Source: a virus
Strand: one strand, 5' to 3'
DNA length: 64,000 nucleotides
IMG/VR virus record: IMGVR_UViG_3300043399_000446
Coordinates: 22,133-86,132 of that record
The notes below the pieces were generated by a model, which searched no databases, was not told where the DNA came from, and saw nothing but the letters and a program-made list of their open reading frames with translations. Of the stretch, positions 3,266-57,983 are shown piece after piece; within the stretch, counting starts at the first letter, position 1, and each line of letters begins with the position of its first letter. The translations under genes and the position numbers were made by a program.

Positions 3266-4177
3266 TTATGATGTTGGTAACTCTGTTACTACTTTACCCG
3301 TGTTATCAACTACTTGTAGATTTTTTGATTTTAAGTATTCAACATACATTGGACCAATTGTCTTAAGTAGATGCTCTTGATTCTCCATACAGAATACATA
3401 GCTACCTGAGTGGCGTAGTAGGACACGTTTGTCTACCCAAACGCGGCCGCCTAGATCACGCCAGTTTTCGCAGAATGTCCAGTCTTCGCTGTAGTAACGA
3501 TTCTGACGAACGGCTGTGTCAAAGTATGTCTTTAGATACTTGTCATACTTTGGATCCATACCAATGTCATTTTTGTATGGCTTGACTGCTGGGTGAGCAT
3601 TTAGCTTCGCAAATACATGCTTCTTCATTAGCAAGAAACCTGTACCAGCTTTGCTTACTTCTTGTAGACCATCAGGGCCTTCTTCTGCACCTTCAAATCC
3701 ATTTACTACCCATTTGATAGGCATTGACTTCATTGGATATAGACCTGCGATAACGTCAACGTCACGATTTAGTAGAACTAGCAAATGCCATGGCTCCCAA
3801 CCAATGTCAGCATCTACGAAGAATAGATGTGTAGCTTCGGGCATATCTAGAAACTTAGCTGTTAGTGTGTTACGTGCGCGACTAATCAATGATTCATTGA
3901 CCATTGTTTCCAATGTCCAATCAATACCAAGTTGGCGAGCAGTATTTGCCCACTTGATGAATGACATGAATACAGATTCAGTTAGCATACCGCCATAGCA
4001 AGGCATAGCGATGTGTACGCGAGTGGTACGTAAGAAATCTACATTAACTTGAATTTGTCCAGCCTGTGGCTGTTGACCTTGCTCGACTTGAGCAGGTACT
4101 TGGGCTGCTTGTTGTGCTAATTCCTGTACAGCCTCTACAGGAACTTTCTTTTCTGTCTTGGGTTTTTTAGTTGCCAT
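3266..4177 (-). CDS. GT-A fold glycosyltransferase
   Basis: IAMPCYGG, ESLISRARN, FVDAD (DxD), GTGFLL, SEDWTFC motifs. Confidence 0.75.
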   Translation of the reverse strand: MATKKPKTEKKVPVEAVQELAQQAAQVPAQVEQGQQPQAGQIQVNVDFLRTTRVHIAMPCYGGMLTESVFMSFIKWANTARQLGIDWTLETMVNESLISRARNTLTAKFLDMPEATHLFFVDADIGWEPWHLLVLLNRDVDVIAGLYPMKSMPIKWVVNGFEGAEEGPDGLQEVSKAGTGFLLMKKHVFAKLNAHPAVKPYKNDIGMDPKYDKYLKTYFDTAVRQNRYYSEDWTFCENWRDLGGRVWVDKRVLLRHSGSYVFCMENQEHLLKTIGPMYVEYLKSKNLQVVDNTGKVVTELPTS

Positions 4178-5292: not shown

Positions 5293-5460
5293 TTATGCTT
5301 TAACTACCTCTACAACAATAGAATCGCCTACTAATTCCTGTGATACTTGCTCTAGTGCGGATGCTACATCATCACTTAACAAGTTGGCAGAATCAGTTTC
5401 GCTATCTTTAACGATTTTACTGAATTTTACTACTAGTACTTCTTCAACAATTTTGGCCAT
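5293..5460 (-). CDS. 55 aa hypothetical protein (not in ORF track)
   Basis: MAKIVEEVLVVKFSKIVKD...VEVVKA*; GGAG SD and TAAATA upstream; fills the gap exactly. Confidence 0.7.
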   Translation of the reverse strand: MAKIVEEVLVVKFSKIVKDSETDSANLLSDDVASALEQVSQELVGDSIVVEVVKA

Positions 5461-21649: not shown

Positions 21650-23149
21650 TTAAATTGGTAAGGCATAAGTTATTAGAACTCTACCCGAACCTCCTGATGC
21701 CCCTGCAGCAGTGTAATATAATTCTACATTAATGGGGGTTCCCACTGGACCCACTGATGAAGGAACGTCGTATCTACCTACTGTTGTCAAGTCGCTATCA
21801 CCGGCACCAGCAAATTGAGTAGGAATACCTTGTGGACCCACAGTGATAGTTGCTCCAGTGCCACCGCTGAATGCTGAATCAACGATAATGCTTACTGTGT
21901 CAACAATAGCATTTGCAGGTAAAGTAAATGCACTTATTGTAGCATTTGAACTGACAACGAAAGGTGTGCTTACAACCGTCATCATACCTACAGGCTGTGG
22001 TGCACTCCAACTTAAGTTTCCATTTCCGTCAGTTGATAAGAATTCACCTGCATTTCCGCCTGAAATCTTGACATTAGAAACAGGACCTAGGTTAGCAACA
22101 CCATCTACTGTTAGACCTGTTAGAGTTCCAACAGAAGTAATGTTTGTCTGTGCATTTGTTAATATAGTACCACTTAAATTACCAATGAATGTGTCAGCGC
22201 GTACATTACCTAACGTTGTCCAGTTAACAACTTCATTGTTGATACTTACTTGACTACCAAATGCAAATTCACTATTACTTGTGTCCCAGCCCATAAATGC
22301 TGTTGCACCTGCATTACCAGCAGTGTTCCAATAGTTTAATGCAGTACCAACGTCATAATTAGTGTTAGAAGTTAGTGGACCACCATTAGAACTTTGTAAT
22401 TGTATGATTGGATCTTTTACTGACAATGTATCAACATTAATGTATGTTAAATTACCATTGACAGTTAAATTACCACCAACTAAAACGTTACCTTGAACAT
22501 CTAAATTTGTTAATGTACCAACGCTTGTAATATTAGGTTGTGCATTTGACGTAACAGTCTCAGCTATTAAAGCGTTTGCTACCTGTCCTGTTATATTAGC
22601 AGCCGTAATACTTGTTAGTAACGCACCATTTCCGCTTAAGTTTGTAGCGAATAATGTATTAGTATCAGTGTTAAATGTGAAGTTAGCACTAGCACCAAAT
22701 GAACCGCTACTGTTGAACTGAACTTGTGTATTATCACCACCTGCCTGTTGGAAATCAACAGGAGCGCCATTTGCGTAATAATAGTTATCAGTTAGAATAC
22801 CACCTGTACTTATATTACCTGTAACGTTAGCATTTCCTGATACACTTAGATTTGCCAGTGTACCAAGTGATGTGATATTGGGTTGTGAGCTTGAAGTAAC
22901 TGTATCAGCAACTAATGCATTTGCTACTTGACCAACAATGTTAGCTGCTACAATGTTAGTTAAGCCTGCTGCATTACCTACGAAAATACCTTCAGATGCA
23001 GTAATATTACCTGCAGTTAGGCTTACAAAAGAGGTATTTGCACCATTTTTTACTTCAAGATTACCTGAAGCATTTTGTAGCAAAGGACCCGTAAATCCTA
23101 ATTGGAAATTACCTCCTTGGGTACCTTTAATTTTAATCCATGTACTCAT
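21650..23149 (-). CDS. fibre-like repeat protein
   Basis: Q(P/T)NITS repeats, VQFN-x-x-G-x-FG, TDGNGNLSW motifs. Confidence 0.65.
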   Translation of the reverse strand: MSTWIKIKGTQGGNFQLGFTGPLLQNASGNLEVKNGANTSFVSLTAGNITASEGIFVGNAAGLTNIVAANIVGQVANALVADTVTSSSQPNITSLGTLANLSVSGNANVTGNISTGGILTDNYYYANGAPVDFQQAGGDNTQVQFNSSGSFGASANFTFNTDTNTLFATNLSGNGALLTSITAANITGQVANALIAETVTSNAQPNITSVGTLTNLDVQGNVLVGGNLTVNGNLTYINVDTLSVKDPIIQLQSSNGGPLTSNTNYDVGTALNYWNTAGNAGATAFMGWDTSNSEFAFGSQVSINNEVVNWTTLGNVRADTFIGNLSGTILTNAQTNITSVGTLTGLTVDGVANLGPVSNVKISGGNAGEFLSTDGNGNLSWSAPQPVGMMTVVSTPFVVSSNATISAFTLPANAIVDTVSIIVDSAFSGGTGATITVGPQGIPTQFAGAGDSDLTTVGRYDVPSSVGPVGTPINVELYYTAAGASGGSGRVLITYALPI

Positions 23150-27855: not shown

Positions 27856-28422
27856 TTATATTTTTTTTCTACAGTTATCAAAATGCCATCTTGACATAGC
27901 AGGGTGCTGCCCCATTTTTCCACATTTAGGGCAAGTGGAAATAGGCTTAGGTCCTTTATTTTTACCCAATAATGCTTTACTTATATTAGGCCTTTTTCTA
28001 CCCTTAAGTGCTTTACTAACATGTGGTAGAGGCTTACCTAATTTACTAATACTTATAGATTTGCAATGTTGTTCAGACTTTTTCTTGCCCTCATGAGATT
28101 TACTCATTTTATTGCGTTGAGTTTTTGAGAATTTGAACCCCTCTATACCTTCACCCCCATCTGTAAGATTTCTTAGAATTCCTGTTCCTAAATCCTTTCT
28201 ACCATACCACTTAATCATTCTTCTTTCTATAGCAAGGGCACCCAATTCAGTTAAATTATGCTCTAATATTATTATTTGAGAAAAATCTTTTGGTATATTT
28301 ATAGTATGTTTTTCAATGGCTCTGGTGTTCTTTCCTTTACCAATATAATAAGGTGTCCCATCTTTTCTAAGGTAAGCGTAAACGTAAAAACCAACAGGAA
28401 TAATTTTTTTGCTAAATACCAT
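27856..28422 (-). mobile_element. GIY-YIG-like homing endonuclease A (NUMOD3-like + Zn/RWHFDNC tail)
   Basis: FYVYAYLR...PYYIGKG...RA...E...[10 protein letters not shown]; start after AAGGAG SD. Confidence 0.75.
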
Positions 28423-28492
28423 GGCTGACTGCTCCTTACAAGCGTTAGAGAGGATGGGTATTTCCAGTACCGCGATCCTCAATATCTATTTA
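28413..28492 (-). promoter_or_regulatory. conserved structured endonuclease leader, copy 1
   Basis: TAAATA-GAGGAT CGC GGTA loop TACC C ATCCTC-TCTAACGCT-AAGGAGC-CAGC-ATG, plus antisense TAAATA. Confidence 0.75.
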
Positions 28493-28981
28493 TCACTTAT
28501 CTTTGGTTTTCTGACCTAGCATTTTCAATAGCTCATTTCTATCAGCTATTAATTTACCTTCACCTAAAGGAGTATTTTCTAGTTCTTTATTTGCTGCTTC
28601 ACTTTTTTGATCTAGTGCAGCTTTTTTCAACTGTAACTCAATCATTTTTAGCTTTTTATTAAGTTTAGCTGTTTTTGCTGTTATTGCATGACCTAAAAAT
28701 GTCCCTGCCGCTGCAAATATTTCACTGCTATAGCGACTATCTACCTGCATACCTAGCTCTTTCAAGTCCTTAAAACTGTCTACCGCTAAGTTTGCTAGTT
28801 CATCCATTTCTATATCGCTAGCTTCTAAACCACGCACTTGAGGTAATGCGTTGTCTATCTTTTCTAAATTGTCTAATGCGTCTTGTGTAACTTCTTTTAT
28901 TTCTTCTTTAGGTATAGGAAGATCGTCGTTAGATTCGTCATGCTGTGCTAGTTCAAAAAGTTCTGATAGTTTTTTAGTCAT
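28493..28981 (-). CDS. possible terminase small subunit
   Basis: 162 aa helical protein with a gp16-like pattern, next to gp4; weak resemblance only. Confidence 0.4.
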   Translation of the reverse strand: MTKKLSELFELAQHDESNDDLPIPKEEIKEVTQDALDNLEKIDNALPQVRGLEASDIEMDELANLAVDSFKDLKELGMQVDSRYSSEIFAAAGTFLGHAITAKTAKLNKKLKMIELQLKKAALDQKSEAANKELENTPLGEGKLIADRNELLKMLGQKTKDK

Positions 28982-40477: not shown

Positions 40478-42184
40478 ATGCCCAAACTATCTTTATACAA
40501 ACCAAATAAGCAAAATGACTATAGGTTCTTTGATCGTACCATTTCAGAAATGTTTACGGCTGGAGCCACTGATTTGTATGTACACAAGTATGCGGGCGTA
40601 GCCAATACAGGCCCAAGCAATGACTTTACACAGCCTGAATACGATAAACCAGATCCAACACAAATACAAGATTTACTATTCTTAGAGAATAGGGATCGTG
40701 TGTACGACCAAAACATTTATAGATTACGTGGTCACTACAATGTACAGAACCTGGACTTCGACTTGAGTCAGTTTGGTTTGTTTCTAAACAATGATGTGAT
40801 CTTTATAACTGTACATTACAATGACATGATCGACATCATGGGTCGCAAGTTGATGGTAGGCGATGTAATAGAACTACCCCATCTTATTGATTACAATCCT
40901 CTTGACGAATCATTACAGTATGCTTTAAAAAGATTTTATCAAATCACTGACGCAAACTATGCCAGCGAAGGTTTCAGTCAAACTTGGTTCCCACATCTTT
41001 GGCGTATAAAGTGTGAACCCTTAATCAATAGTCAAGAGTTCCAAAACATACTCAACAAACCCAACAATGAAGATAACTATTTGGGCAATTATGATCCCGA
41101 TAAAACTTATCCACCTGGGTATACGGTTCAGTATGGCGACAAAGTTTATGAGTCATTGAAAGAAGTTCCTATAGGTAAAAATCCACCCGATCCAGAATTT
41201 TGGAAAGAAATACCTGAGGGTGGCACATTATCTGACATTATTTCAACTTATAATAAGAATATCGCAGTTAACGATGCGATGCTTGAAGAAGCAAAACGAT
41301 TGCTACCTAAGTCAGGATACGATACAGGTAATCTTTATGTCGTGCCAACTTACGGAGTAAAATCAGGTAAATTTGACCAACCTGCACCACCTATAAACAT
41401 TTTGGGTAGTCCATTAGGATTAAGTGCTGTTATAGGTACAGTTGTATTGATGAAAGATCCCAACTATAAGAATAGTAGCCCTGTCATCAAAGTGTCAAAG
41501 CAGGCAGTGCAGAGCTTTTGGGACATGACTGCTGACATGGATCACATAAGCGATCCATTAGACGCATTCGTTGCTTTAAGTTTAGAAACAGATGAAATAG
41601 CTCCTGAAAGAACATCCACAGGATCGGGTGCAGTAAGCGGTGAGAAAGTTGTTGTAGCACAAAGTAATGGTATCATTTTAGGACCCTATGGTACCGCCGA
41701 TAATACTTACGCAACTGCTGACCAAGATCCAGTAGCTCCTGGATTTACAGGTACAGAGCCATATGGTCCCAATACAATGAACTATCGCGCAGACTGCGAT
41801 CCAAGATTTCAGTTCATAGCGCGTAGCAGTCCAAGATCATTTGGTTATACTACAGGATACCTAACAGGTGACGGTACTGCACCAAATGGTTTCCCAACAG
41901 GCGTGGGTATTTCCTTCCCACAAGATCCTAAAGTAGGCGATTATTTCTTGCGTATAGATTATTTTCCTCAACTACTTTATAGATGGGATGGTAATCTTTG
42001 GATTAGAATAAGCGAAAATGTAAGAACAGATACAGGCTTCACCGCAGAAGATCAATCACAACTATCCGGATTCATCAACAATGAAAACACAACTACATTG
42101 ACTGATGGCGAAGTTGTACCTCAAGCACAAGCACTATCTACAATCTTGACTGTAGCTCCTGACGACATTCCTCCAGAAGCTTAA
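40478..42184 (+). CDS. neck/head-closure protein (gp14-like) with extensions
   Basis: MPKLSLYKP, LSQFGLFL, VGDVIELP; start 5 nt after TAAATA. Confidence 0.7.
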   Translation: MPKLSLYKPNKQNDYRFFDRTISEMFTAGATDLYVHKYAGVANTGPSNDFTQPEYDKPDPTQIQDLLFLENRDRVYDQNIYRLRGHYNVQNLDFDLSQFGLFLNNDVIFITVHYNDMIDIMGRKLMVGDVIELPHLIDYNPLDESLQYALKRFYQITDANYASEGFSQTWFPHLWRIKCEPLINSQEFQNILNKPNNEDNYLGNYDPDKTYPPGYTVQYGDKVYESLKEVPIGKNPPDPEFWKEIPEGGTLSDIISTYNKNIAVNDAMLEEAKRLLPKSGYDTGNLYVVPTYGVKSGKFDQPAPPINILGSPLGLSAVIGTVVLMKDPNYKNSSPVIKVSKQAVQSFWDMTADMDHISDPLDAFVALSLETDEIAPERTSTGSGAVSGEKVVVAQSNGIILGPYGTADNTYATADQDPVAPGFTGTEPYGPNTMNYRADCDPRFQFIARSSPRSFGYTTGYLTGDGTAPNGFPTGVGISFPQDPKVGDYFLRIDYFPQLLYRWDGNLWIRISENVRTDTGFTAEDQSQLSGFINNENTTTLTDGEVVPQAQALSTILTVAPDDIPPEA

Positions 42185-42804
42185 CTAGGTTTAAACTTAC
42201 AGTTATCAAAGTGCCATCTAGGCATGGTACACGATCCCCCTTGCTTATTGCAATGGGGACATGTTACTATTGGGTATTTCATACCAGTCCTTGACTTTGC
42301 GCTTTTTTCTATCCATTCTTTTGATAAAGGTCTTCCTTTATTTTTATTAGGTCGTGTTCTTTCTTTAGATTTATTAGATTTTTTATATTTTAATCCTATC
42401 TTTTTTGCAAGATATTCAGGAGAGCGTTTTATACCTCTTTGTCTTTTACTTTTATTTTCGTTTTCTTCAGTAGAATGTTTTTTGCCTTTAAGCGCCTCAA
42501 TGATTTTTTTTCTACCCTCAAGTCCAGGATCGCCTCCATCCTTGCCATTCTCGTACTTTAAATTGGCCCAATGTACAGACTCAACTATATTATTATCCAT
42601 GGAAAATTGCAATGCAAAATTAGTGCAATCTTCTTGATTGTTGAATTCCCATACAGAAACGGTTTCTATGTCTTTTCCGTGTTTTTTTAAATGTCTATTC
42701 CAATATTTTCCAGATCCTGTATAATTATAAGGATCTATGGTTGTCTTTCCAAAATAATTCAATCCGGTTTTACGATGACGTTTATGATATAGATAAATAA
42801 TCAT
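42181..42804 (-). mobile_element. Seg-like GIY-YIG homing endonuclease B, inverted between gp14 and gp15
   Basis: IYLY...YFGKT...Y-x-GSG, NUMOD3-like basic repeats, CPHC...RWHFDNC. Confidence 0.75.
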
Positions 42805-42869
42805 GCTGATAGCTCCTTCATAGCATTAGAGTAGTTGGGGACTGCAATCCCGCGAACTACACATATTTA
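42794..42869 (-). promoter_or_regulatory. conserved structured endonuclease leader, copy 2
   Basis: TAAATA-GTAGTT CGC GGGA loop TCCC C AACTAC-TCTAATGCT-AAGGAGC-CAGC-ATG, plus antisense TAAATA. Confidence 0.8.
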
Positions 42870-42884
42870 TTCAAGGAATTAATT

Positions 42885-44255
42885 TTGGCTACCTATTTTT
42901 ATGACGCGCAGATAAGACGATTTTTAATTCAATTCGCAAAAATCTTCAGTTCGTGGTATGTCACTAAAGGCAAGGATCCTAACGGAAATCCTATACTTGT
43001 TCGTGTTCCTATCATGTATGGAGATAGTAGCCGCCAAGCAGCTACTATTATTGCTAATAATAGTGCCAGCAATTTACCTACTGCACCTTTACTTACATAC
43101 CACATTACAGGATTAGAATACGATCAACGTAGAACTCAAGTACCTACTTTAGTAGACAAGATGCAGGTAAGACAAAGAACTTACAATCCTGAATCACAAA
43201 GTTATGAGACTACTCAGGGGCAGGCATTTACTGTTGAAAGATTGATGCCCGTACCTTATACACTAAGATTACAGGTAGATTTTTGGTCTACAAACTATCA
43301 GCAAAAATTAGAGTTAGTAGAACAGTTAGGAACATTATTCAATCCTGGCTTAGACATTCAAAGCACAGATAACTTTATAGATTGGACATCGCTAACGGTA
43401 GTATTTCAAGATGGTATAACTTGGAGTTCTCGTAGCATACCGCAGGGCACAAACAATCCTATCGACGTACTGTCTTGGAAGTTTTACATTCCTATTTGGA
43501 TCAGTACTAGTGCTAAACTTAAAAAGATGGGTGTTATTCATAAAGTTATTGCTTCGATACATAAAGGCACAGCTTTACAAGACATACAAGACGAAGATTT
43601 ATTGTTGGGAACAAGACAAAAGATTTCACCTTATGGTTATAAAGTACTATTGATAAATGGTATGCTACAGCTATTACCAAATGATGTAGCTTTTTATCCA
43701 CCTAATGAGTCTATTGAAGAACCTACAAATCCCAATACATCGATTTATTGGTCATCGTTGTTAAATGTTTATGGTACTATAAAACCAGGAATTTCACAAA
43801 TTTGGTTACAAAATCCCTATATGGAAACTGAAATTGTAGGTACAATAACACCTGATCCATTAGACGATAGATTCTTGATCTATAATATTGATCCTGATAC
43901 ATTACCTCAAAATACATTGGGACCTGTCGATAGTATCATCAATCCACAATTAGTAGGTCCTAACGCGGGGTTACCAGGACCTGTAAATGGTCGAAGATAC
44001 CTAATAGTTGAAAACATTGGATTCCCAGGTAGCCCAACAGTAGCTTGGGGTGATTTGGTAGCTAATGCTAACGACATAATAGAATACAACTCCAGTACTG
44101 GTGAATGGCATGTTTCATTTGACAGTCAAGTATCAGATAGTGTAGAATACGTTACTAATCTTACTACCAACATTCAATACCGTTTTACAGAAGGTGTTTG
44201 GATGAAATCATTTGAAGGGTGGTATGGAGAAGGCGATTATTCTATAGTTATCTAA
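42885..44255 (+). CDS. tail terminator / sheath stabiliser (gp15-like)
   Basis: YFYDAQIRRF, VPIMYG, MPVPY, QKLELVEQ...FNP; TTG start. Confidence 0.8.
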   Translation: MATYFYDAQIRRFLIQFAKIFSSWYVTKGKDPNGNPILVRVPIMYGDSSRQAATIIANNSASNLPTAPLLTYHITGLEYDQRRTQVPTLVDKMQVRQRTYNPESQSYETTQGQAFTVERLMPVPYTLRLQVDFWSTNYQQKLELVEQLGTLFNPGLDIQSTDNFIDWTSLTVVFQDGITWSSRSIPQGTNNPIDVLSWKFYIPIWISTSAKLKKMGVIHKVIASIHKGTALQDIQDEDLLLGTRQKISPYGYKVLLINGMLQLLPNDVAFYPPNESIEEPTNPNTSIYWSSLLNVYGTIKPGISQIWLQNPYMETEIVGTITPDPLDDRFLIYNIDPDTLPQNTLGPVDSIINPQLVGPNAGLPGPVNGRRYLIVENIGFPGSPTVAWGDLVANANDIIEYNSSTGEWHVSFDSQVSDSVEYVTNLTTNIQYRFTEGVWMKSFEGWYGEGDYSIVI

Positions 44256-45010: not shown

Positions 45011-45961
45011 TTATTCCTTGTTGATACTTACGATAGGATAAGTTACACCAGCGGCTGCATTAGCATCTTCTGCACTATTGAATGTTGCATAAGCAGGATT
45101 TGCATTTTGTAGTAAGGGCGCACTGTTACCAAAAATTTCAAGATTCACATCGCTCAAGCTTTGTACAAATGCTGTAGCAGCATTAGCATAAGTTGCGATA
45201 ATGTTCATTGTATTTGGTGTTAGTGAAGCATTAGCTACGTTAGCTGTTTGACACTGAGCTACTAGGCCACTTGTTGCACCTTGAACTAGATACTTTTGTT
45301 TGCCTTTTTGACGAACAATAAATCCTGGCTCGTTTGTGGCAAAAACGAATGCGGCATCAGTAGCATCAACTTCTGCGTTTGCAGCTAGTTCTAGTTCAGT
45401 ATCACTTGTAATTGAATCTACGTAGCCCACTAATGTACCGTCAGCTAATGTTAGAACTGAACCCACAGCTAGTTCTGTATCAAATGCTGTATCTACACCA
45501 GTAACTGTTGTGCTTGTAGCGTCTGTAGTAATTGTTCCGGTACCTGTTTGACCAATAGCTACACGGCACAATACTTGATTACCATAAATTGCTGTATTAC
45601 CACCGACTACACCATAAGTGTTTGAAATACCAGCTGGATTGTTGAAACCTGAATCAACTACACCAACTGATGCTGCTACACTTTGACCTGTTGTTGCTGA
45701 AAGATTTACAGGTGTATAAGTAGGATTTGCATTTAGAGGTGTCGCTGATACTGTGAAAGTAGAAGCACCGGTAACTTTTAGAATCCAGTATGTTGTACCA
45801 GCAACCAAGCCACCTACGTTACTTGCTGCAACGAATGGCATACCTGCAATAATACCTAGGCTAGCTAATGTCTGTGATACTGTAACTTCTTCTGTACTTG
45901 CGTTTGTTGCTGTGATTGTAAGCACGGCTTGTGCTTTTGCGATTTTTAGAGGACGTCCCAT
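45011..45961 (-). CDS. virion structural protein (MGRPLK family)
   Basis: A/T/G-rich, IVRQKG motif, strong SD, late promoter. Confidence 0.6.
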   Translation of the reverse strand: MGRPLKIAKAQAVLTITATNASTEEVTVSQTLASLGIIAGMPFVAASNVGGLVAGTTYWILKVTGASTFTVSATPLNANPTYTPVNLSATTGQSVAASVGVVDSGFNNPAGISNTYGVVGGNTAIYGNQVLCRVAIGQTGTGTITTDATSTTVTGVDTAFDTELAVGSVLTLADGTLVGYVDSITSDTELELAANAEVDATDAAFVFATNEPGFIVRQKGKQKYLVQGATSGLVAQCQTANVANASLTPNTMNIIATYANAATAFVQSLSDVNLEIFGNSAPLLQNANPAYATFNSAEDANAAAGVTYPIVSINKE

Positions 45962-46040: not shown

Positions 46041-46064
46041 AGTATTTATCTAAAACGGATAATT

Positions 46065-57201: not shown

Positions 57202-57243
57202 TTGGTCCTTTTTCTGTTATTATCAGTATTTATCGTCAGGTAA

Positions 57244-57319
57244 TAAATAAAAAGGTAGTTCGCGGAATTGGCCTTCCCAACTACTCTAATGCTATAAGGA
57301 GCACCAGCTTGTATATTTA
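57244..57319 (+). promoter_or_regulatory. conserved structured endonuclease leader, copy 3
   Basis: TAAATA-GTAGTT CGC GGAA loop TTCC C AACTAC-TCTAATGCT-AAGGAGC-CAGC-TTG, plus antisense TAAATA. Confidence 0.8.
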
Positions 57320-57983
57320 TTATGTTTACGCATATTTGCGGCAATTTAATTCAAACACGGGTAAGGCAGGAACTCCCTATTATATTGGAAAGGGGAAACA
57401 TAAAAGGGCTTGGTCAAAGAACCACTCTGTAAATCTTCCAAAACTAAGTTCAAATATAGTAATTTTAGAAAGTGGTCTAAGTGAATGTGGAGCTATAGCA
57501 TTAGAACGACGCCTTATTAAATGGTGGGGGAGGGTAGATATTTCTACGGGAATTTTACGAAATAGAACTGACGGAGGCGAAGGTACTGAAGGTAGAAAAA
57601 ATAAGTTCAATCAATCGGGAAGCCTTAATCCATCTTTCGATGATACTATCTATACATTTTACCATAAAACAGGATTGATTGAAAAATGTACACAATTTGA
57701 ATTACGGAAAAAATATAATCTTAGGGCAGGAAATCTTAGTGCCGTAATTAAAGGATATGAAAAATCAGTAAAGGGTTGGCGTATTACGGAAGAATTTATT
57801 GACTTAACAGGTAAAAGGCAGCGTGGATGTGATGATGTTTATACTTTTATTCATACTTCAGGTATAATAGTCGAAATGACCCAAAGACAATTATTTTTAA
57901 ATTTTAATTTAAAAACAAGGTCAGGTATAAGCCTCTTATGCCATAATAAAATAAAATCATACAAAGGATGGAGATTGGGGTAG
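57309..57983 (+). mobile_element. GIY-YIG-like homing endonuclease C with two C-terminal HTH-like repeats
   Basis: YYVYAYLR...PYYIGKG...[10 protein letters not shown]; two YTF-x-H...KS-x-KGWR repeats; TTG start. Confidence 0.75.

Follow-up and report, generated by a model that had tools for sequence, protein, structure and literature searches.

In large lytic phages, the chief selfish genes are those of homing endonucleases. Within a 64,000-nt stretch of DNA from the IMG/VR virus record IMGVR_UViG_3300043399_000446 (positions 22,133 to 86,132; hereafter the window), three dispersed endonuclease genes are headed by the same short element, in which two TAAATA motifs face each other across two covarying hairpins and the ribosome-binding region. 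This element, which we denote the cassette, has at least about 200 distinct relatives in the two scans of IMG/VR taken together. We propose, with moderate confidence, that the cassette is a portable control unit of about 85 bp that would act through both strands at the 5' end of free-standing homing-endonuclease genes, combining late promoters with an antisense brake.

The cassette and its covarying hairpins

The initial annotation of the window had pointed to a leader of about 60 nt shared by the three genes. All of its elements were found at each of the three sites, in the order ATAAATA, a spacer of 3-6 nt, a bulged hairpin, TCTAAYGCT, AAGGAGC, CAGC and the start codon. The conserved stretch is real, but the unit is longer, about 85 bp, and extends into the first codons with the motif TATTTAY. 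Its full order is TAAATA, hairpin 1 (HP1), an 8-bp hairpin 2 (HP2) around the Shine-Dalgarno sequence (SD), the start codon, and an inverted TAAATA in the first codons. A pattern search and a covariance model (R1, below) agree that the whole 86-kb record holds exactly three copies, named A, B and C here.

Relatives were collected from IMG/VR with two patterns. Scan 1 used the linker and SD (CTCTAAYGCT, 2-6 nt, AGGAGC) and left the hairpin free; it returned at least 119 stretches, and of the 116 distinct ones among the matches listed, 102 have the complete leader, its hairpin arms able to pair, far more than chance would yield; the other 14 are chance matches. Scan 2, anchored on the promoter motif and the commonest 5' arm of HP1 with linker and SD left free, returned at least 117 distinct cassettes, 43 of which also fit the pattern of scan 1. 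Alignment A2 comprises 101 cassettes from scan 1, the window copies included (the 14 chance matches and locus L035 were left out). The scan 2 alignment, from which R1 was built, comprises 108 of 116 rows, eight with long inserts having been left out and one of the 117 cassettes, containing N, having been dropped earlier. Over 100 fetched loci (L004-L103 of 212) R1 found 107 full-length copies, with none in the 14 chance loci, and it backed the membership of L035. Eleven copies found by R1 fit neither scan pattern, and every element is present in them, including both TAAATA motifs.

Copies A and C have GTAGTT/AACTAC as the outer arms of HP1, copy B has GAGGAT/ATCCTC, and the inner stems of the three copies are GGGA/TCCC, GGTA/TACC and GGAA/TTCC. 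The stem covariation that had been read from these three copies holds across the family: RNAalifold recovers HP1 from A2 (n=101), with compensatory changes in 10 of its 11 pairs. What had been described as an invariant CGC/C internal loop is actually a base pair with a bulged C on either side, and this pair varies (G-C in 76 cassettes, A.C in 13 and A-U in 12, on the mRNA strand).

A short GCT/AGC stem had also been noted, and it can enclose the SD as claimed, but it is only the core of the 8-bp HP2, CUAAYGCU/AGCNUCAG. In the scan 2 cassettes HP2 is a stem of the form C-U-A-N5/N5-C-A-G, and its loop, nnnAAGG, carries the SD. Its arms swap freely (ATGCT/AGCAT, TGATT/AATCA, ACATT/AATGT, ATACT/AGTAT and others), and CUCUA...CAGC and CUUUA...CAAC change in concert. 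Six of the eight HP2 pairs show changes on both sides in the 108 rows read on the antisense strand; in these rows 98.0% of cells are paired, versus 89.6% after shuffling (0 of 500 shuffles as high) and 35-52% when the partner is slid.

Two candidate roles for the linker were dropped: a nut-like boxB-boxA arrangement (hairpin plus CUCUAAC), since CUCUA is the 5' arm of HP2, and an anti-SD role for CUCU, which belongs to the same arm. In all copies, the one covarying pair lies between two bulged bases of HP1 that are nearly invariant, C in the mRNA sense and G in the antisense. These bases may be a protein-binding site; their conservation is explained by none of the roles considered here.

The features of the three copies are as follows.

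42790-42873 (+): copy A, whole cassette, antisense strand; R1 83.7 bits, E 9.8e-21, model positions 1-85
42864-42870 (-): copy A, sense late-promoter motif ATAAATA, 3-nt spacer to HP1
42831-42860 (unstranded): copy A, HP1; outer stem of 6 bp, G-C pair between two bulges, inner stem of 4-5 bp
42806-42829 (unstranded): copy A, HP2; encloses SD AAGGAG at 42813-42818
42793-42799 (+): copy A, late-promoter motif ATAAATA of the antisense strand, within codons 2-4; antisense +1 predicted at G 42805
42181-42804 (-): endonuclease gene A (P0001, 207 aa); ATG at 42804-42802; phrog_314 and phrog_655, 'homing endonuclease'
42885-44255 (+): tail gene adjoining copy A; starts 16 nt past the cassette, no other TAAATA 5' of the gene
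28409-28496 (+): copy B, whole cassette, antisense strand; R1 62.8 bits, E 1.1e-14
28487-28493 (-): copy B, sense late-promoter motif ATAAATA, 6-nt spacer
28450-28480 (unstranded): copy B, HP1; outer stem GAGGAT/ATCCTC
28425-28448 (unstranded): copy B, HP2; encloses SD at 28432-28437
28413-28418 (+): copy B, TAAATA of the antisense strand, here as CTAAATA, within codons 2-4; antisense +1 predicted at G 28424
27856-28422 (-): endonuclease gene B (P0002, 188 aa); ATG at 28422-28420
57240-57323 (-): copy C, whole cassette, antisense strand; R1 89.9 bits, E 1.6e-22
57243-57249 (+): copy C, sense late-promoter motif ATAAATA, 5-nt spacer; predicted +1 at G 57255
57255-57284 (unstranded): copy C, HP1, from R1 match and folding
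57286-57307 (unstranded): copy C, HP2; encloses SD at 57296-57301
57314-57320 (-): copy C, late-promoter motif ATAAATA of the antisense strand, within codons 2-4; antisense +1 predicted at the G opposite 57308
57309-57983 (+): endonuclease gene C (P0003, 224 aa); TTG start at 57309-57311
42851-42854, 28471-28474 and 57261-57264: HP1 bulged-base positions in copies A, B and C

Strand asymmetry and facing promoter motifs

An A.C mismatch on one strand is a G.U wobble on the opposite strand, and the A.C found on the mRNA strand therefore suggests that the antisense strand is the one selected for folding. Apart from 1060 Watson-Crick pairs, the HP1 cells of A2 contain 3 G.U versus 32 A.C or C.A on the mRNA strand; without the loop-proximal pair, where the alignment is uncertain, the counts are 0 G.U versus 24 A.C. 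The variable pair between the bulges follows a G-C/G.U/A-U path on the antisense strand. For HP2, the antisense strand shows 675 Watson-Crick pairs, 167 G.U and 4 A.C, and one of its G.U pairs is invariant in 108 of 108 rows.

Folding energies agree with these counts. In the parsed set of 176 cassettes (33 of 209 entries being unparsed or duplicates) the mean minimum free energy (MFE) of the core is -16.46 kcal/mol on the antisense strand versus -13.09 kcal/mol on the sense strand, and the antisense fold is the more stable in 158 of 176 cassettes and in each of copies A, B and C. For 3/3 of these copies the MFE structure of the antisense strand consists of the two hairpins (-16.3, -19.7 and -18.4 kcal/mol; z -1.8, -1.7 and -1.9), and on the sense strand HP1 is kept and HP2 is reduced to 3-4 bp (z -0.4, +0.3 and -0.8). 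This sense HP2 has a conserved A.C mismatch, with the SD in its loop and 3' arm. Judging from these sequence comparisons, the fold of the cassette is probably selected on the antisense strand.

In this phage TAAATA behaves as a late-promoter motif: of the 79 window genes, 21 are preceded by it at 9-70 nt, versus 4.1 +/- 1.9 at random positions and 7 on the opposite strand of the same stretches. In 99 of 101 cassettes its core also recurs in reverse complement, as TATTTAY, right after the start codon. Three reading frames share this inverted motif (xxT-ATT-TAY 78, TAT-TTA 14, xTA-TTT-Axx 7), and its conservation is therefore at the nucleotide level and not at the codon level. In 133 of 176 cassettes it stands 5 nt from the final C of CAGC, the base of HP2, with the start codon sliding inside the spacer. 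On the other side, the sense TAAATA stands 3-9 nt 5' of the invariant first G of HP1, and exactly 5 nt in 119 of 176 cassettes.

The T4 late promoter is described as an 8-bp TATA box with its first base at -13 (PMC2988020, consulted in part). By this rule the 5-nt spacer would place +1 on the G residues at both hairpin bases, and the +1 positions given here for these phages are predicted from it. A 3-nt spacer, found in 18 cassettes including copy A, would put the predicted start 2 nt inside the HP1 stem. The cassette thus carries, at the level of motifs, a candidate opposite-strand promoter within the 5' end of the gene it heads; no sigma-70-like sites were found on the three window cassettes.

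The RNA predicted from this promoter would read, 5' to 3', G, HP2 with the loop CCUUnnn (an anti-SD), AG, HP1 with two bulged G, CAC and a U-rich tail; the 10 nt past HP1 on the antisense strand contain a mean of 6.0 U. That it ends there as a discrete, terminated species is a tentative prediction, somewhat on the doubtful side.

A proposed antisense brake and its alternatives

We propose the following course of events. Two TAAATA late promoters would face each other about 70 bp apart, in uncultured phages using T4-type late promoters. The left one would give the endonuclease mRNA, beginning with the first base of HP1 or close to it, and the right one, on the opposite strand in codons 2-4, would start an antisense RNA one base before HP2. 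This RNA would fold into two hairpins, of which the 5' one would display the anti-SD CCUU in its loop and the 3' one would lead into a U-rich stretch complementary to the left promoter. The antisense fold would be tightened by G.U wobbles, the same positions being A.C mismatches in the mRNA. By construction, every base of the mRNA between +1 and the edge of the start codon would have its complement in such an antisense RNA, and pairing of this RNA with the ribosome-binding region would most likely cut endonuclease synthesis, as RNA-OUT does with the IS10 transposase. Promoter interference would perhaps add to the repression, and where a cassette lies inverted in a late operon its antisense promoter may also feed the neighbouring gene.

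A bolder form of the proposal, which we consider unlikely, is that one antisense module sits on all the homing endonucleases of a phage, whatever their catalytic family, and governs them together in trans. Since the copies have the 5' hairpin and the linker in common, each antisense RNA could reach every copy in trans, and such multi-copy inhibition would cap total nuclease output during genome replication. The facing late promoters would then permit insertion in either orientation without silencing neighbours, and the G.U wobbles would let one DNA segment give both a tightly folded RNA and an open, translatable leader.

Several points weigh against an antisense brake. Both alignments were gathered by pattern, so that the linker and SD are invariant in set 1 and the HP1 arms in set 2. 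The single-sequence z-scores are modest, and the weight of the argument lies on the comparative counts. A discrete short antisense RNA is not assured, since the longest U run past HP1 averages about 3 and the hairpin has two bulges; a simple terminator scan flagged 0/3 window copies on either strand. The U-rich tail is also the plain complement of the sense promoter, and the U tract was independent of the need for read-through as judged by context (p 0.67 and 0.21). At copy A the tail gene lacks a promoter motif of its own and would need read-through past HP1. A search of sequencing runs for this DNA returned two DNA runs from one freshwater sample and no RNA run. Finally, the one copy found in a deposited phage record, that of Pseudoalteromonas phage vB_Psh_XG4, lacks the inverted TAAATA past the start codon.

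The neighbourhood of the cassette bears on a first alternative. In crude gene calls (longest open reading frame (ORF), 90 aa or more), 151 cases could be assigned, 92 with a divergent and 59 with a co-directional upstream neighbour; 27 were unassignable and 4 unparsed. It is possible, although unlikely, that the cassette is an orientation-proof adaptor, in which antisense promoter and hairpins restore late transcription to the host gene on the left, the hairpins being a stabilising 5' structure of the neighbour's transcript and any effect on the endonuclease a by-product. Of the 92 divergent neighbours, 32 have their own TAAATA and 60 have none, which speaks for an adaptor; in the 59 co-directional cases leftward transcription has no gene to serve. 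Many co-directional upstream genes have their stop codon inside the sense TAAATA or only a few bases away (some 30 of the 59 gaps are -9 to +9 nt), and the cassette there is thus inserted flush with the end of the preceding gene.

Copy A also bears on the adaptor. Its endonuclease gene is inverted between two + strand structural genes, and the tail gene at 42885-44255, having no other TAAATA before it, would depend on transcription in the antisense direction. Among 80 relatives of this tail gene the site is empty in 78; the closest four empty-site relatives have a GATAAATA of their own at this place, and in most others the gene directly adjoins the one upstream. Locus L222 carries an independent cassette at the same tail-gene site and in the same orientation as copy A. 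The antisense promoter at copy A may therefore drive the neighbour as well, which a strong terminator would prevent. T4 endonuclease genes are likewise described as embedding promoters for their neighbours (PMC2988022, in the part consulted). At copy C, in turn, the neighbour has its own ATAAATA at 57227-57233, and a promoter donor needs neither two covarying hairpins nor an anti-SD loop. In L222 two cassettes flank one gene, at 3907-3991 5' of the tail gene and at 5374-5459 right after it, and this tail gene appears to start with ATT in place of ATG.

The initial annotation had proposed a structured RNA leader. As an mRNA leader, a 5' HP1 would stabilise the late mRNA or bind a repressor and HP2 would tune ribosome access. 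The sense promoter does place the predicted +1 at the base of HP1, and the sense strand still forms HP1 and a short HP2 with the SD in its loop and 3' arm. We nevertheless judge this account to be rather improbable: on the mRNA A.C mismatches occur in the hairpins with next to no G.U, the wobble asymmetry favours the other strand (24:0 in HP1, 167:4 in HP2), the A.C mismatch in the sense HP2 is invariant, and the sense fold is the weaker one in 158 of 176 cassettes. Nor does it explain an inverted promoter motif held at a fixed distance in the first codons whatever the reading frame.

A DNA-level element has still less in its favour and appears quite improbable. One strand might extrude hairpins, or the cassette might be a protein-binding site, for homing, recombination or cassette shuffling of the kind proposed to be mediated by the PeSL elements of T4-like phages (PMC4122927, consulted in part). 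Strand asymmetry alone does not prove an RNA, since G.T is tolerated in single-stranded DNA too; comparison of the copy A site with its empty-site relatives shows the cassette to be the exact left edge of the inserted segment, and varied cargo domains are shuffled behind it. Promoter spacing that puts both predicted starts at hairpin bases is, however, not required by a DNA role.

A mask of the T4 type, in which AUAAAUA in read-through RNA would pair with the downstream UAUUUAU and close the start while late transcripts lack the 5' arm, is highly improbable, for although the two motifs are perfect complements that bracket SD and start as in the T4 paradigm (PMC2988022, in the part consulted), they show no flanking covariation (complementary in 91 of 176 cassettes versus 88.3 expected), a 7-bp A-U helix across 70 nt is weak, and the wobble pattern of the antisense strand goes unexplained.

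Cargo, distribution and known systems

The genes behind the cassette are of several kinds. The label GIY-YIG, given earlier to the three window proteins, is weakly supported: Pfam returned nothing at E<=0.01, its GIY-YIG model reaching E=1.1 for P0002 with no match for P0001 or P0003, and a profile of 40 relatives matched a PDB 'GIY-YIG domain-containing protein' at E=0.003. Among PHROGs, P0001 and P0002 give significant matches to the 'homing endonuclease' families 314 and 655, and the sole matches of P0003 are phrog_15526 and phrog_10829. P0002 and P0003 share 56% identity over the N-terminal 108 aa, and P0001 and P0002 share 30% over nearly their full length and a common C-terminal zinc-finger-like tail. 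The C-terminal half of P0003 holds two copies of a repeat of about 60 aa (…YTF.H..G…KGW…), with no zinc-finger-like tail and no Pfam match.

Across the family, 185 cassettes were tallied for cargo; 34 had no start codon found by the regular expression, 10 ran off the contig end and 2 lacked TATTTA. The remaining 139 head complete downstream ORFs, of which 127 distinct proteins of at least 100 aa formed the search set. Pfam matches among these include NUMOD3 (29), HNH_3 (15), HNH (7), GIY-YIG (6), SegE_GIY-YIG (5) and TnsA-like (2), and PHROGs placed most of them in homing-endonuclease or HNH families, 64 in phrog_314. The nuclease domain thus varies behind one cassette, and the earlier view of a portable, covarying module on mobile endonuclease genes, better conserved than its cargo, is borne out. 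Since the cargo consists of unrelated nucleases, it is the cassette, and no single enzyme, that is under the constraint; that the cassette is an autoregulatory operator of its own enzyme, also suggested at first, is unlikely because unrelated enzyme families have the cassette in common. Twelve of the 139 cassettes head ORFs below 100 aa (4 to 99 aa), which may be decayed endonuclease genes with an intact cassette or errors in start-codon parsing.

Cassette-bearing contigs range from a few kb to 524 kb among the matches listed. In cellular genomes the strict pattern gave six stretches, three of which are true cassettes, all on contigs of metagenome-assembled genomes. These full cassettes (L303, L305 and L308; 70-80 bits) lie on contigs binned as Bacteroides, Nitrosomonadales and Haliscomenobacter, and are probably phage contigs mis-binned with cellular genomes. 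A consensus-like leader had no blastn match in 50,697 phage records. R1 had no match in the cultured cyanophages with homologous endonucleases S-SRM01, S-N03 and ACG-2014f, marginal matches at best in B23 (E 0.88; 0.039 with filters off), and none at E<=10 in S-PM2 or T4. The sole match in a deposited phage record is one divergent copy of 42.6 bits in vB_Psh_XG4 (L301:1501-1592; PP712099.1, 56129-56220), in which both hairpins are kept; this record is marked UNVERIFIED_ORG and is without annotation.

The comparison with Rfam suggested in the initial annotation found no known family on the cassette in Rfam 15. At the gathering scores, the window gave only freshwater-2, away from the cassettes; at E<=10, on both strands of the three loci, nothing fell on the cassette, HEARO, RNA-OUT and COG2827-type motifs being among the families. 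In the literature searched, which did not extend to paper supplements, no description of the cassette was found.

By analogy, the closest working counterpart of the cassette is RNA-OUT of IS10, a 69-nt antisense RNA that is complementary to the transposase translation start and acts in trans on further copies of the element, as multi-copy inhibition (PMC5006887, consulted in part). As described there, IS10/Tn10 combines a gene of a selfish element, an antisense promoter facing the gene's own, a stable stem-loop and complementarity to the start region, all of which are predicted here. Unlike RNA-OUT, the cassette has phage late-type TAAATA promoters, two predicted hairpins and an anti-SD in a loop; it is common to unrelated nuclease families and has no sequence or Rfam relation to RNA-OUT.

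Leaders of the T4 type are described for I-TevI, I-TevII, I-TevIII, segB and Aeh1 mobE (PMC2988022, in the part consulted, for this and the next two comparisons), where a hairpin masking the ribosome-binding site (RBS) contains the late promoter. Limiting nuclease synthesis is their purpose, and is what we propose for the cassette. Late transcripts lose the mask in those leaders, whereas the cassette has its promoter ahead of both hairpins, a fold suited to the opposite strand, and a further promoter motif in inverted orientation. The difference from I-TevI seen in the initial annotation, with the promoter 5' of the hairpin, holds across the family, as the 5-nt spacing in 119 of 176 cassettes indicates; with T4 itself giving no R1 match, the cassette is not of the T4 RBS-mask kind. 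Aeromonas phage 25 offers a single case, seg43(25), of a stable hairpin just 5' of the RBS of a seg-like endonuclease, with the RBS not sequestered; the likeness is by description only.

Cyanophage S-PM2 has CfrI, an antisense RNA of about 225 nt that links psbA to F-CphI (PMC2984593, PMC12197685, both consulted in part). It too lies over a homing-endonuclease gene of a T4-like phage, as is predicted for the antisense RNA here; S-PM2 itself has no R1 match at E<=10, and the parts consulted describe no portable unit for CfrI. The PeSL elements are likewise small conserved units of promoter and stem-loop, repeated in T4-like genomes and tied to modular shuffling (PMC4122927, PMC2839356, both in part). 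They are recognised by an early sigma-70-type promoter with a terminator stem-loop, whereas the cassette motif is the late-type TAAATA, and in the part of PMC4122927 consulted they are not described as heading endonuclease genes or as having an antisense design.

Taken from sequence, the cassette could well be a new and widespread variant of cis-antisense control attached to homing endonucleases, a view of which we are moderately confident. To our knowledge, restraint of these enzymes is known only from a few T-even cases with an RBS mask within a late-promoter hairpin. If our proposal is correct, the cassette would be a second, widespread solution to keeping homing endonucleases harmless, a compact and portable antisense module found on GIY-YIG, HNH and TnsA-like nucleases in phages of about 140 kb to over 500 kb. 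It would constitute a large new phage RNA family with hundreds of copies, none in Rfam, and a clean natural case of strand-selective folding through G.U wobbles, with late promoters firing towards each other 70 bp apart. It would also provide a ready marker for free-standing endonuclease genes and their insertion sites in metagenomes.

The phage from which the window derives is an uncultured freshwater myovirus, whose 86-kb IMG/VR record is about 25% complete (CheckV). Its tail sheath is about 46% identical to those of jumbo phages such as PA5oct, Atu_ph07 and Phosso, and 6 kb of the window had no megablast match in phage records. The freshwater-2 RNA of the window (Rfam RF02980; 45959-46033 on the - strand) scores 63.3 bits versus a gathering score of 49.9. 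It begins 10 nt 3' of an ATAAATA (46043-46049, - strand) and lies directly 5' of the gene at 45011-45961 (- strand); in this setting it resembles a leader at the 5' end of a late transcript.

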